A stretch of DNA of 12,523 nt, taken from the IMG/VR virus record IMGVR_UViG_2645727991_000008; one strand, 5' to 3'. The position numbers are program-made. Numbering within the stretch: position 1 is the first letter of the stretch; each line of letters opens with the position of its first letter. Source of the stretch: a virus (taxonomy: Duplodnaviria > Heunggongvirae > Uroviricota > Caudoviricetes). Below are positions 1-6,000 of the stretch, in pieces.

Positions 1-3000
1 CGTCACGCCATTTCCTGTTGGATCATGTAAATGACACTCAGGTTACAAAACCGGCCAGAATAATCGGCGCCAGGCGGACTGAGTTATTGTCGTTTCATAC
101 ACTTCTGCTCTCATTGCTGGTTTGCGCTTGCATTGCAAGACCACTCGTGAAGGGGTTGGCCTGTGTAGCTTGTCGGAGCTGATCGCCTCCTGACTTTGCA
201 GATTTGCGCGACGAGCTCTACGGCGAGAAGCTGCGGTGCCTTTAAATTCTGTTTTTCTGGACATGGATTCCTCCCGAATAAACTTTGGCGATGCAATCTC
301 GAAGCTCCTCCTGAGACGGTTGCTTCGGCATTGCATCCCACAGCTTATGTGGTTGGGTGATCTGGCTTTTCAGCCACGTAGTCGAGAGTCGACGTTGTTT
401 AAAGAGCCTGCCAGTCTGTTCCATTTGGCTTCCAGCGTCCTGCTGACGGTTAAATAGTACGATATGTACTTTACAAGGTCAATACAATTTGTTGTAAGTT
501 GGCGTGGTTTTTTATAACGCTTTGTATTTAATAGTGTTGTTTTTTTAGCGTGGATGTATTGTCTCGGCGATGTAAGGAGAGATCAGAATTGCGTGGTTTA
601 GTGGGTTGCATCTATTTATTTTTCAATAAATATAATTGGTTATGTGTTTTTAGGTGGGCGAACGTGAGGCAAAGAAAACCCGGCGCTGAGGCCGGGTTGT
701 ATTATGCTGCAAGTCTCTTAATCCAAGTCTCTCTTTTGGAGAATGGTAGAACTTGGCTTGATTCATGGAAGAGTAAGGAGAGTTGTTGCATTTGATCACC
801 AATTGCTTCGCTGTCTATAACAACAAATCTGTTGTTATACTCCTCACTTGAAGCTTTAAGATCAATTAGTTTCCCAAGCAATGAGTAAGCACTATTCCAG
901 CTTCCTCCGTGTTTCACGCTTGATGTAAAAACGTATTTAGGTATGTCGGTTTTTATTGTTACAGGGACGGTAATTTGATGTCCACTCAAGCCATATACGT
1001 TTTCACGAAGAGAAAGTGCGTCTCTAAGCTCTGTGTGATATAGATAATCAATAACCATACTTTCAAACTTTTCAGCTTGAACTGGCTGATACCAGTCTAA
1101 CGACAAAGTTGATGCGAGTATACCAGCTCTAATTATGTTCGATGTAATCGCACCGACATCCTTTTCTGTTGCCCAAGCAATGATTTCTCCTCGAGCATTG
1201 AGTTCTGCGCCTTCTTTAAGCAGTAATTGTCGTATCTCATCAAGTCGTTTTTTGGTAAGCGAGATCCCTCTTGCCTCCATATTCATTAAGGCATCGCATC
1301 TGTCACTAACTAAATACCTACCATTGACTTCACGGATAAAGGCACCGACATGCTCTCCATCATCACAGTAAGTGAATGGACTGATAATTCTCAAGGTCTT
1401 GCCTATTGGATGGCATTCGAAACCTAGTTGTGAGATCACTGTTGAGCACATCATATTCCAAACCCCATTTGCCCCGACTCATCTTCAAGCGGTAAAGGTA
1501 TTCTCCCAGAGTAAGTTATGTTCAGATGTTTACAGAAGTAATTCCAATACCCTACCAGGTCATCTGGGTTTATGTCATCTTCGATTGGAAACGCTATTCT
1601 ATCACTATAGTATCCAGCTTCTTCATAGTATACATGGTAGTGAGCACCGTAAATGATATCTTGGTACTTCGGATGATCGACCTTGTAACTATTCGTGTGT
1701 TTGTCAAAGTGATAGGTATCTACCGCGAAAACCCTCTTGTTATGATAGAAAGCAATAATATTTATTTTAGGGTAAGAAATCGGGTCATCAGGTTCTGAAT
1801 CCTGATCTGGTTTCCATTTCAGTTCAAACTTTAGCCCTTGTATAGGTATACAATCCTCATCCAAGGGGATGATATGAGCTTGTAGCCACATATCAGAGCG
1901 ACTTGGTTTCTGTTTCCATTTAACGCCAGAAAAGTTAACTATTTTTTTACAATAAAGTACTTTATCAACTTCTACTTGGCTTGGCTGATAATCATCTATT
2001 TTTGCCAATGTTTACCGCCCTGTAAATTGTAGATAAAAGTGGTTTCATCACCCAAACGTCTCTTCAGGCCATTGGCTGGCGATAACTTTCCCCACAACGG
2101 AACAACTCTCATTGCATGGGATCATTGGGTATTGTGGGTTTAGTGGCTGTAGAAACACCTGACCGCTATCCCTGATCAGTTTCTTGAAGGTAAATTCATC
2201 ACCACCAAGTCTGGCTATGCAGAAATCGCCGGGCTCAACAGCTTGCTCAGGGTCAACCAGAATTAACATCCCGTCAGGAAAGCTGGGTTTGGAACCTGTT
2301 GGTGCGGTCATTGAGTTACCTTCAACCTCAAGCCAGAATGCAGAGTCACTGGCTTTTTTGGTTGTGCTTACCAATCTCTCCGCATCGCCTTTGGTAAAGG
2401 TTCTGAGTTCTGGAGAGAACATCCCAGCCTGAACATGAGAAAAAACAGGGTACTCATATTGTTTTTTAACTGGGGCCGATGAGTATTCGCCAACAGGTGA
2501 AAATGTCCCGTCGTGGTTGAATGATATGTTATCAATACCAAGGTATTTAAACACCACACCAATATCACTAAGAGATGGATGACGAGATCCGCGCAACCAG
2601 TGTCCAATCCCACCCTGCGTCATACCTAGCTCTTCGGCTAACTTCTCTTGAGTTATGCCGAGCTCTTTCATTCTGGATCTAGCCAGTTCATACCATTTCA
2701 TTTTCATGTCCTTATTATTACGCTTTGTACTGGAACCATCCATGCACAATGTGTATTTTTACTTGTATTCTTAAAGTACATATTGTATTTTTATTCGTGT
2801 TTACTATGGAGGGCATATGAGCAACCTACGAAAATATCGAGAGTCACTGAATATCTCTCAAACAACACTTGCTAAGGCAGTTGGATGCACACAGGGAGCT
2901 ATCGGACATTGGGAATCTGGTCGTCGCTTCCCAGACCTTAAAACATGCCGTGCTCTTGTTGCATGCCTAAACAAGTTAGGCGCAAAAGTCAGTCTTGATG

Positions 3001-6000
3001 ACGTGTTCCCGCCGGAACATAAAGCCGCTTAATAAGCGGATCCGCTCTTTGTAACAACGGACATTCGTCCTACGTCGCTGAAAAGCGAGTTCCAAGATAT
3101 CTGACCAACTAAGGCCATATGCGTTTCCACGCATACCTTTCAACTAACTATTCACTATTGGAAATCTTAAGAAATGGAAAGAACAAGTTACAGCAAACTA
3201 TCACAGCGTGACGTTGATCGCGCAGAAACAGATTTACTTATCAATCTGTCAGCTATTACCCAGCGCGGTCTGGCAAAGATGATTGGCTGTCATGAATCGA
3301 AGATAAGCAGAACGGACTGGAGATTTATTGCTTCGGTCTTGTGTGCTTTCGGAATGGCATCAGACATAAGTCCGATTAGCAGGGCTTTTAAGTATGCGCT
3401 TGATGGACTCACCAATAAAAAACGCCCGGCGGCAACCGAGCGTTCTGAACAAATCCAGATGGAATTCTGAGGTCATTACTGGATCAATCCACAGGAGTCA
3501 TTATGACAAATACAGCAAAAATACTCAACTTCTGCAGAGGTAACTTTGCCAAACAGGAGCGTAATGTGGCAGATCTCGATGATGGTTACGCCAGACTATC
3601 AAATATGCTGCTTGAGGCTTATTCAGGCGCAGATCTGACCAAGCGACAATTTAAAGTGCTGCTTGCCATTCTGCGTAAAACCTATGGGTGGAATAAACCA
3701 ATGGACAGAATCACCGATTCTCAACTTAGCGAGATTACAAAGTTACCTGTCAAACGGTGCAATGAAGCCAAGTTAGAACTCGTCAGAATGAATATTATCA
3801 AGCAGCAAGGCGGCATGTTTGGACCAAATAAAAACATCTCAGAATGGTGTATCCCTCAAAACGAGGGAAAATCCCCTAAAACGAGGGATAAAACATCCCT
3901 CAAATTGGGGGATTGCTATCCCTCAAAACAGGGGGACACAAAAGACACTATTACAAAAGAAAAAAGAAAAGATTATTCGTCCGAGAATTCTGGCGAATCC
4001 TCTGACCAGCCAGAAAACGATCTTTCTGTGGTTAAACCGGATGCTGCAATTCAGAGCGGCAGCAAGTGGGGGACAGCAGAAGACCTGACCGCCGCAGAGT
4101 GGATGTTTGACATGGTGAAGACTATCGCACCATCAGCCAGAAAACCGAATTTTGCTGGGTGGGCTAACGATATCCGCCTGATGCGTGAACGTGACGGACG
4201 CAACCATCGCGACATGTGTGTACTGTTCCGCTGGGCATGCCAGGACAACTTCTGGTCCGGTAACGTGCTTAGCCCGGCCAAACTCCGCGACAAGTGGACC
4301 CAGCTCGAAATCAACCGTAACAAGCAACAGGCAGCCGTGACAGCCAGCAAACCAAAACTCGACCTGACAAACACAGACTGGATTTACGGGGTGGATCTAT
4401 GAAAAACATCGCCGCACAGATGGTTAACTTTGACCGTGAGCAGATGCGTCGGATCGCCAACAACATGCCGGAACAGTACGACGAAAAGCCTCAGGTACAG
4501 CAGGTAGCGCAGATCATCAACGGTGTGTTCAGCCAGTTACTGGCAACTTTCCCGGCGAGCCTGGCTAACCGTGACCAGAACGAACTGAACGAAATCCGCC
4601 GCCAGTGGGTTCTGGCTTTCCGGGAAAACGGGATCACCACAATGGAACAGGTTAACGCAGGAATGCGCGTAGCCCGTCGGCAGAATCGACCATTTCTGCC
4701 ATCACCCGGGCAGTTTGTTGCATGGTGCCGGGAAGAAGCATCCGTTATCGCCGGACTGCCAAACGTCAGCGAGCTGGTTGATATGGTTTACGAGTATTGC
4801 CGGAAGCGAGGCCTGTATCCGGATGCGGAGTCTTATCCGTGGAAATCAAACGCGCACTACTGGCTGGTTACCAACCTGTATCAGAACATGCGGGCCAATG
4901 CGCTTACTGATGCGGAATTACGCCGTAAGGCTGCCGATGAACTGACCTGTATGACAGCGCGAATTAACCGTGGTGAGACGATACCTGAACCAGTAAAACA
5001 ACTTCCTGTCATGGGCGGCAGACCTCTAAATCGTGTTCAGGCGCTGGCGAAGATCGCAGAAATTAAAGCTAAGTTCGGACTGAAAGGAGCAAGTGTATGA
5101 CGGGCAAAGAGGCAATTATTCATTACCTGGGGACGCATAATAGCTTCTGTGCGCCGGACGTTGCCGCGTTAACAGGCGCAACAGTAACCAGCATAAATCA
5201 GGCCGCGGCTAAAATGGCACGGGCAGGTCTTCTGGTTATCGAAGGTAAGGTCTGGCGAACGGTGTATTACCGGTTTGCTACCAAGGAAGAACGGGAAGGA
5301 AAGATGAGCACGAACCTGATTTTTAAGGAGTGTCGCCAGAGTGCCGCGATGAAACGGGTATTGGCGGTATATGGAGTTAAAAGATGACCATCTACATCAC
5401 TGAGCTAATGACAGGCCTGCTGGTAATCGCAGGCCTTTTTATTTGGGGGAGAGGGAAGTCATGAAAAAACTAACCTTTGAAATTCGATCTCCAGCACATC
5501 AGCAAAACGCTATTCACGCAGTACAGCAAATCCTTCCAGACCCAACCAAACCAATCGTAGTAACCATTCAGGAACGCAACCGCAGCTTAGACCAAAACAG
5601 GAAGCTATGGGCCTGCTTAGGTGACGTCTCTCGTCAGGTTGAATGGCATGGTCGCTGGCTGGATGCAGAAAGCTGGAAGTGTGTGTTTACCGCAGCATTA
5701 AAGCAGCAGGATGTTGTTCCTAACCTTGCCGGGAATGGCTTTGTGGTAATAGGCCAGTCAACCAGCAGGATGCGTGTAAGCGAATTTGCGGAGCTATTAG
5801 AGCTTATACAGGCATTCGGTACAGAGCGTGGCGTTAAGTGGTCAGACGAAGCGCGACTGGCTCTCGAATGGAAAGCGCGATGGGGAGACAGGGCGGCATG
5901 AGACGACAGCGACGAAGTTTCACCGACATCATCTGCGAAAACTGCAAATACCTTCCAACGAAACGCTCCAGAAATAAACGCAAGCCAATCCCAAAAGAAT

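Follow-up and report, generated by a model that had tools for sequence, protein, structure and literature searches.

Chimeric cI and cII genes in the early region of a lambdoid Escherichia coli prophage carrying a VT2-Sakai-type specificity cassette

We analyzed the early region of a lambdoid Escherichia coli prophage, a stretch of 12,523 nt from the IMG/VR record IMGVR_UViG_2645727991_000008 (hereafter the window, to which all coordinates refer). The subject is its immunity module, in which the repressor gene cI and the regulatory gene cII had been described, from the sequence alone, as parts of lambda joined to foreign DNA. That both genes are chimeric relative to lambda is confirmed. The finding is real and was correctly observed; it is also already known, and its evolutionary reading needs refinement. 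The module and the replication genes next to it contain the following features:

2048-2749, minus strand: cI, an open reading frame (ORF) of 233 amino acids (aa), with Pfam matches to HTH_3 and Peptidase_S24
2047-2458, minus strand: linker of cI (from lambda residue Tyr101) and C-terminal S24 domain, a lambda-type island
2459-2749, minus strand: N-terminal helix-turn-helix (HTH) domain of cI, of VT2-Sakai/Stx2 II type (HTH_3, E value 2e-10)
2716-2732, 2742-2758 and 2774-2790, no strand: rightward operator region (OR), three operator-like sites of 17 bp each, placed where cI and cro diverge
2817-3032, plus strand: cro, 71 aa, HTH_3 type (Pfam), with a non-lambda sequence
3033-3407, plus strand: nutR and 5' module of cII (codons 1-78), the HK97/H-19B/Stx2 II allele
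3043-3050 and 3075-3088, plus strand: putative boxA-like element and boxB-like hairpin of a nutR-like site, read from the sequence
3174-3470, plus strand: cII (Phage_CII, E value 7e-34 over residues 1-92)
3183-3196, minus strand: match to the CII-site pattern TTGCN6TTGT (TTGCTGTAACTTGT) at the position of the promoter PRE, in the first cII codons (pattern search)
3408-3470, plus strand: cII codons 79-98, the lambda/434 allele (LTNKKRPAATERSEQIQMEF), with 62 of 63 positions as in lambda
3417-3503, minus strand: gene of the antisense RNA oop, with coordinates carried over from the phage 434 record, to which it is 96% identical
3446-3419 and 3528-3500, minus strand: oop terminator hairpin and pO-like promoter (terminator and promoter scans)
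3503-5387, plus strand: lambda-type replication module O, P and ren (Pfam Phage_rep_O and Phage_lambda_P)
3503-4402 and 4399-5100, plus strand: O and P, respectively (ORF calls)
about 3851-3935, plus strand: iterons of the replication origin within O, by homology to 434

The oop gene is about 96-97% identical to the oop annotated in 434 and to lambda, with a predicted terminator and a predicted promoter-like site. An Rfam scan of the window gave no match to an oop or nut family (there is no oop family in Rfam), and its remaining hits were weak and unrelated. The CII-site pattern was not enriched at the level of the whole window.

Between positions 2458 and 3408, blastn gave no alignable match to lambda. 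This stretch (2459-3407) spans the DNA-binding domain of cI, OR, cro, nutR and the first 78 codons of cII, and its nucleotide identity to lambda is about 25-50%. To its left, positions 2047-2458 align without gaps to lambda 37226-37637 (93.4% identity, 27 mismatches); to its right, positions 3408-5901 align to lambda 38591-41084 (97.9% identity, and 98.0% to 434), with about 98% identity to both phages for the segment 3511-5387 alone. In a global alignment to lambda divided into bins of 30 columns, identity was 0.83-1.00 up to 2459, 0.13-0.60 over 2460-3419, and 0.86-1.00 over 3420-3560, where the alignment ends. A maximum chi-square analysis against lambda placed the breakpoints after 2458 in cI (Fisher p 8e-61) and after 3407 in cII (Fisher p 1e-18); against Stx2 II, the breakpoint in cII fell after 3405 (p 3e-4).

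The preliminary description had pointed to lambda-like protein sequence from the linker of cI to its C-terminus and again at the C-terminal end of cII, with a non-lambda HTH domain, operators, cro and front part of cII in between, and it had proposed a nucleotide alignment with an identity plot to locate the breakpoints. The alignment bears this out: the core is bounded by sharp junctions inside two coding sequences, with lambda-type O, P and ren (98%) beyond it, and the peptide strings it named are exact. Uniformly low identity to lambda across the 3' half of cI and the 3' end of cII, which that description had named as the outcome speaking against it, was not what we found. The last 20 residues of CII (LTNKKRPAATERSEQIQMEF) are those of lambda, and the 136 residues of the cI linker and C-terminal domain differ from lambda at a single position (W129L in lambda numbering). 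At the nucleotide level this segment carries 26 synonymous differences and one non-synonymous difference from lambda (synonymous divergence dS 0.37, non-synonymous divergence dN 0.003, dN/dS 0.008).

In lambda numbering, the cI junction falls between residues 100 and 101. It is thus in the linker between the domains, ten residues before the Ala111-Gly112 cleavage site and eight residues beyond the published boundary of the lambda N-terminal domain at residue 92. On the other side, the lambda-type island ends one base past the cI stop codon (2047). The protein has the layout of a lambda-type CI: an HTH domain (HTH_3 at residues 25-72 of the 233-aa ORF), an S24 domain (Peptidase_S24, E value 1e-28) with the Ala-Gly site and the Ser/Lys dyad, a divergent cro, and operators at OR and at the leftward operator region (OL). 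The motifs VQAGMF, GNSMT and FKKL align identically with those of lambda around Ala111-Gly112, Ser149 and Lys192. The ORF extends to a TTG at 2749; translation probably starts at one of two ATG codons, at 2707 or at 2701, since these fit the length of 217-219 aa of the homologues. The N-terminal domain is only about 18-20% identical to that of lambda, with its coding DNA at background level (about 38%), and 81 of 81 residues are identical in phages 1717 and YYZ-2008, the PA series and the Stx2a_WGPS phages.

Such a contrast between domains could in principle arise without recombination, by vertical descent with fast divergence of the N-terminal domain and purifying selection on the C-terminal one. 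The very low dN/dS of the C-terminal segment agrees with this, as do the HTH_3 folds of both N-terminal domains and their related recognition-helix motifs (QSGVGA in lambda, QGGIGH in the window). Purifying selection, however, leaves synonymous sites free, and yet the DNA is 93% identical to lambda in the C-terminal part and about 38% in the N-terminal part, with the switch falling within one or two codons. Moreover, g341c, a Salmonella P22-like phage whose repressor is a true full-length relative, has a C-terminal domain just 74% identical in nucleotides. We consider vertical descent extremely unlikely.

Joints at which a DNA-binding domain meets a domain for oligomerisation and cleavage are known from other lambdoid repressors. 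Domain-level shuffling has been reviewed for 933W, HK022 and H-19B (PMC3202840); the 933W repressor has its joint in the same place but unites other parental alleles, an HK022-type N-terminal and an H-19B-type C-terminal domain (PMC3202840), whereas the C-terminal domain of the window is of lambda/HK97 type. The CI of VT2-Sa was also described as having high C-terminal and low N-terminal homology to lambda CI, an observation attributed to Fattah et al. 2000 (PMC10742460). Lambda CI and VT2-Sakai-type CI have been placed together in "Clade I" of the repressors of Shiga toxin (Stx) phages with 61% overall identity (PMC8951638), which fits a hybrid of parts of about 99% and about 20% identity. 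The repressor of epsilon34 is about 80% identical to lambda and HK97 in its C-terminal part and about 50% identical to VT2-Sa in its N-terminal part (PMC2629481).

"Hybrid repressor" is thus a fair description of the cI product, but casting lambda as the parent takes only one of two possible directions. In the other, the C-terminal domain would be native to the VT2-Sakai/epsilon34 lineage, and it would be lambda cI that is the hybrid. The repressors of g341c and of epsilon34 type support this direction, being full-length homologues of the window repressor (N-terminal domain about 51% identical in aa; C-terminal domain 74% identical in nucleotides and about 80-85% in aa), and so does a graded series within the window N-terminal family, with N-/C-terminal identities of 95/97, 81/85 and 52/82%. 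To set against this, relatives with a lambda-type N-terminal domain in Klebsiella, Citrobacter and Yokenella also have C-terminal domains 82-86% identical. In a search of 5.8 billion proteins with the two domains scored separately, the lambda-type C-terminal domain (at least 80% aa identity) was found joined to at least three unrelated N-terminal families, namely the lambda type, the window type and an HTH_19 type (clusters P0050 and P0108), so that a third family also carries the same C-terminal domain; in one further cluster (P0030) the N-terminal domain was close (78%) and the C-terminal one distant (57%). Since both N-terminal lineages have equally distant C-terminal outgroups (82-86%), the outgroups favour neither direction of donation, and we regard the reversed one as quite possible, if somewhat doubtful.

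The relationships of the rest of the core were examined in a matrix of nine window segments against nine phages. The C-terminal segment of cI is widely shared, both among phages of lambda immunity (lambda 93%, HK97 94%, mEp332 92%) and among those of VT2-Sakai type (Stx2 II 99%, Louie 91%; in VT2-Sakai, 98.5% over 2050-2458). The N-terminal segment of cI and OR with cro are common, among the compared phages, only to ev207, Stx2 II and Louie; OR and cro together are 96% identical to Stx2 II, and cro itself is 96% identical to Stx2 II and 95% to Louie, and absent from lambda, 434, H-19B and HK97. The following segment, nutR with the 5' part of cII (3033-3407), is 96% identical to Stx2 II, which has the same cII 5' part, and 92% to both H-19B and HK97, with no match in lambda, 434 or Louie. 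Finally, lambda, 434 and mEp332 match the 3' end of cII with oop (3408-3510) at 96-97% over the full segment, Louie at 100% over 57% of it, g341c at 94% over 61% of it, and Stx2 II, HK97 and H-19B at only 81-82%. Alternative combinations of these segments are carried by Stx2 II, Louie, HK97, H-19B, mEp332 and g341c.

Three CII configurations were found: full HK97 type in Stx2 II (tail ...LDEITKKKSPAATEDFKQIDMQF), a hybrid of 78 and 20 residues in the window and in ev207, and full lambda/434 type in Louie, which has the same cI and cro. With the 3' end of oop taken from the 434 annotation, the lambda-type block starts 9 bp past it and adjoins the terminator hairpin at 3419-3446. A second module boundary lies right after cro, where Louie homology stops at 3032 and that of H-19B and HK97 starts at 3042. 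Because H-19B and HK97, with other cI and cro genes, share 3042-3407, while Louie, with the same cI and cro, has a lambda/434-type cII, the exchanged core is, as judged by these alignments, a composite of at least two modules, cI-OR-cro (2048-3032) and nutR with the 5' part of cII (3042-3407). We also noted a perfect palindrome, CCGCTTAATAAGCGG, at 3025-3039, which spans the cro stop codon at this boundary.

These results bear on the evolutionary scenario of the preliminary description, that of the classic immunity swap. Its chimeric cI and cII and its lambda-type O and P stood; a single exchange with a lambda-like left flank, and a core moving as one unit, did not. In its simplest form this scenario is one recent double crossover, in which a lambda-like parent received a foreign immunity core, as in the laboratory hybrids lambda imm434 and imm21. 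Both junctions are indeed intragenic with lambda-type sequence directly outside each, but only the right one continues as a long flank. On the left, the lambda-like stretch is just 412 bp long and is followed by non-lambda genes in the slot of rexA and rexB (rex slot), a non-lambda OL, leftward promoter (PL) and N; the exception is a 122-bp island with a terminator. The features adjoining cI on this side are:

577-698, minus strand: lambda-like island with the cI-operon terminator, 122 bp and 90% identical to lambda (blastn to lambda 35708-35826), equivalent to the lambda sequence just downstream of rexB
698-677, minus strand: terminator-like hairpin followed by a T run (terminator scan)
702-1454 and 1451-2008, minus strand: two accessory genes in the rexA/rexB position, from the cI stop codon to the terminator, encoding 250 aa (with DUF1828) and 185 aa (ORF calls, Pfam)

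The content of the rex slot differed in every compared phage except ev207. Furthermore, dS to lambda is 0.37 in the C-terminal domain of cI, four to six times that of O (0.065) and P (0.099) and against 0.015 in ren, so the cI joint is much older than the link with the lambda/434-type replication genes. The same cI chimera is found in Stx2 II and VT2-Sakai-type phages, whose O region cannot be aligned to the window, and the cII junction is present in ev207 and absent from Stx2 II, which indicates that the joints in cI and cII arose separately. With two junctions that differ in age, the region does not reflect a single immunity swap with a lambda parent, and a recent double crossover of this kind is very unlikely.

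Signs of recombination extend to the right of the core. When the window is compared with lambda, 434 and ev207 over 3408-5901, the 95 variable sites form a patchwork of short, alternating stretches and not one block, which suggests that alleles of lambda-type O-P-ren-ninB have undergone gene conversion repeatedly. One recent crossover between an ev207-like and a 434-like phage in this interval was considered and dropped, since the patches show no one point of switching. Within O, the 5' part (3556-3973, comprising the origin-binding domain and the iterons) is 95% identical to g341c, with different flanks, and is a further intragenic mosaic joint.

The arrangement itself is not new: it has been sequenced before in Stx phages and gut coliphages, and is an ordinary case of phage mosaicism. 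Positions 2000-3520 are 99.5% identical to the isolated temperate coliphages ev207, ev017, PhiR57_1 and PhiR63_2, and about 96% identical to 1717, Stx2 II, the Morioka Stx1 phage and the PA series. Of these, ev207 is 99.1% identical over 100-5901, which covers both chimeric genes, the rex slot, OR, cro and O and P. It differs in its right arm, which diverges after about 5901, where the window goes on as phage-434-like sequence at 98.9%, and the window in turn differs from the ev207 group in having N interrupted by the insertion sequence (IS) ISEc10. The exact chimeric cII is already present in the genomes of the ev207 group. VT2-Sakai, Stx2 II, the Morioka phage and 1717 differ from the window in their HK97-type cII 3' end and oop (82%), their unalignable O region and other rex-slot genes. 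Five complete E. coli chromosomes carry the whole arrangement at 99.8%, and the same 12.4 kb are found at 99.6-99.8% in complete chromosomes; among them, strains 13E0767 and OkiPb01716 have prophages that match positions 100-12523 at 99.8%. An assembly artefact or chimeric contig has nothing specific in its favour, although mis-assembly of co-resident prophages could in principle give mosaic junctions; as the same junctions occur in the independently sequenced ev207, ev017, PhiR57_1 and PhiR63_2 and in complete chromosomes (99.6-99.8% over 100-12523), its probability is negligible. Since public records of phages and of E. coli genomes contain the arrangement, the region has little weight as a discovery.

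The operators were compared with those of Stx2 II and lambda. OR is listed above; the features on the left are:

455-471, 480-496 and 513-529, no strand: OL, three 17-bp operator-like sites, mapped from the annotation of the Stx2 II record
482-454, minus strand: PL-like promoter TTGACC-17-TACTAT (promoter scan), overlapping OL1 and OL2

OL and OR share the 12-mer TAAAGTACATAT and the 10-mer ACGCTTTGTA, for which about 0.003 and 0.05 chance matches, respectively, would be expected (by arithmetic, for two short regions), and it is mainly on these two common words that the operator case leans. Three of the six sites are identical to those of Stx2 II, OL2 and OR3 differ by one base each, and OL3 by two (TACAAC in Stx2 II, TATAAC in the window). 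Lambda operator half-sites (TATCACCGC, allowing up to two mismatches) were found in neither OL nor OR, and their count across the window is at the chance level. The site core TAC-R-N3-TGTA resembles the operator consensus proposed for epsilon34, WTACRAWWTGTAT (PMC2629481), although epsilon34 and g341c, the latter a P22-like phage, have a different predicted specificity. Centre-to-centre spacings are 32 bp for OR1-OR2, 26 bp for OR2-OR3, 25 bp for OL1-OL2 and 33 bp for OL2-OL3, compared with 24 and 23 bp in lambda; the spacing is thus asymmetric, although the cooperativity domain of the repressor is essentially that of lambda. By eye, a candidate rightward promoter (PR-like, TTGTAT-17-TATTTT) overlaps OR1, and a weak candidate for the cI maintenance promoter (PRM-like, TGGATG-17-AATAAT) abuts OR2 and overlaps OR3; the promoter scan called neither PR nor PRM. 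The distance from cro to the annotated cI ORF is 67 bp.

According to the long-standing modular view of lambdoid phages, which these results fit, cassettes are swapped by homologous recombination acting in the conserved stretches on either side of them. We think it highly probable that this is the immunity and early-control region of a lambdoid prophage of known type, with a specificity cassette lying among conserved segments and reshuffled by recombination. The cassette (cI N-terminal domain, OL and OR, cro) belongs to the immunity group of VT2-Sakai, Stx2 II, 1717 and ev207. The short segments around it, common to many lambdoid phages that are otherwise unlike, are the cI-operon terminator, the linker and C-terminal domain of cI, and the 3' end of cII with oop, and recombination within them may shuffle the rex-slot genes, the repressor specificity, nutR-cII and the replication genes. 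Of the two chimeric genes that result in this phage, one encodes a repressor joining a VT2-Sakai-type DNA-binding domain to a lambda-type domain for oligomerisation and RecA-dependent self-cleavage; the other encodes a CII with HK97/H-19B-type residues 1-78 and lambda-type residues 79-98, whose junction lies within a few bases of the oop terminator. As a clean worked example, the region illustrates how lambdoid phages swap specificity cassettes via the terminator, the repressor C-terminal domain and the 3' end of cII with oop.

The likely working of this circuit can be sketched from its layout and its near-identity to lambda. A PRM transcript starting near the ATG at 2707 would give a repressor of about 219 aa, as in most homologues. 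Its dimers would bind the six 17-bp pseudo-palindromic sites (core A-C-R-N3-T-G-T), repressing PL and PR and controlling PRM as in lambda. Oligomerisation is expected to be lambda-like, and RecA-stimulated cleavage at the Ala-Gly site would inactivate the repressor.

Several points weigh against this picture. Repressor binding, repression and immunity are functions predicted from sequence. The motif ACRNNNTGTWNT has 10 matches in the window against 1.75 expected, 8 of the 10 in OL and OR, and was derived from these same sites; the operators were assigned from features that are "putative" in the Stx2 II record. Taken alone, the simple core TACN5GTA is not significantly enriched (5 matches against 1.57 expected, with 9 of 200 shuffles reaching 5). 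Pairwise operator cooperativity of the lambda type is assumed, with spacings that differ from those of lambda. In addition, an IS element breaks the N gene of this particular prophage, which may therefore be non-viable as a phage. We found no evidence contradicting the mosaic reading.

With respect to lambda, the window is alike in 135 of the 136 aa from the cI linker to the C-terminus, the 20 C-terminal residues of CII, oop (about 97%), O, P and ren (about 98%), the divergence of cI and cro around a tripartite OR, and the presence of accessory genes and a terminator downstream of cI. It is unlike lambda in the N-terminal domain of cI, the operators and their spacings, cro, N, the nut sites and CII residues 1-78, and its rexAB genes are replaced. 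The N-terminal domain and operators that define the lambda immunity group are not found here; the DNA-binding domain, operators and cro are those of the VT2-Sakai/Stx2 II group. Since the N-terminal domains are only about 18-20% identical and OL and OR lack lambda half-sites, the prophage is likely heteroimmune to lambda, as had been predicted; it would be immune to VT2-Sakai-type phages and confer no immunity to lambda. On the other side, the recognition-helix motifs of the two repressors are related, and the prediction is disputed second-hand, by a statement in PMC10742460 of cross-immunity between lambda and VT2-Sa, ascribed to Fattah et al. In the same work, Sedhom and Solomon measured weak binding of lambda CI to VT2-Sa operators (apparent dissociation constant, KD, 3.7-6.4 uM), with 0.21-0.35 uM on its own OR1 and OL1 and 3.1 uM on its own OR3 (PMC10742460). 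In the literature on the PhiR and ev207 phage collections we found nothing on immunity tests.

As the oligomerisation domain is nearly that of lambda while the DNA-binding domain differs, repressors of lambda and VT2-Sakai immunity might form mixed dimers or tetramers in one cell, an idea that we put forward as speculative and rather unlikely. If they did, formally heteroimmune phages could be partly cross-immune, weaken each other's repression or be induced in a coupled manner, and the second-hand cross-immunity of lambda and VT2-Sa could be accounted for despite the weak binding of lambda CI in vitro. Phages counted as heteroimmune can, at any rate, share an identical oligomerisation/cleavage domain of the repressor, which is relevant to cross-talk in strains with multiple lambdoid or Stx prophages.

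Outside the immunity module, the left end of the window contains two further features:

1-103, no strand: end of ISEc10 (IS21 family), inserted in the N gene, matching the ends of ISEc10 in many E. coli genomes at 97-99%
100-264, minus strand: 5' part of the antiterminator gene N, about 55 codons (Pfam N_peptide, E value 1e-14), truncated by the IS element

The IS end marks the left limit of the phage DNA, with phage homology beginning at position 100. The N genes of ev207 and 2G7b are 99-100% identical to the window from position 100 only, and the ev207 annotation puts the start at 264. In the window, N keeps only about 55 codons before it runs into IS sequence, and early transcription that depends on N is probably defective in this copy of the prophage. 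The match to the nearest E. coli prophages (99.8%) likewise begins only at position 100.

The two rex-slot genes (702-2008, minus strand) gave weak matches to a candidate defence pair of PADLOC, PDC-M24A (E value 5e-4) and PDC-M24B (E value 6e-10), as well as to DUF6978/DUF1828 and PHROGs of unknown function. They are a variable cassette outside the repressor specificity, and the pair may be an exclusion or defence cassette expressed from the prophage.

Along the 6.6 kb of the right arm (5890-12523), identity to phage 434 is 98.9%, and the window is in effect a 434-like phage with a VT2-Sakai-type immunity region. After ninI there is a short N-terminal remnant of a lambda-type Q (about 7519-7589), and the arm encodes an LpxR-like lipid A deacylase (7730-8692, minus strand), a Q82-like antiterminator (9083-9856), membrane proteins and a SASA-family esterase from 11327. 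Upstream of the esterase gene, in the late-region leader, positions 11039-11243 (plus strand) gave a sub-threshold Rfam match to the small RNA STnc100 (41.4 bits, where the gathering score is 47; E value 3e-6), in a stretch that ends in a strong terminator.

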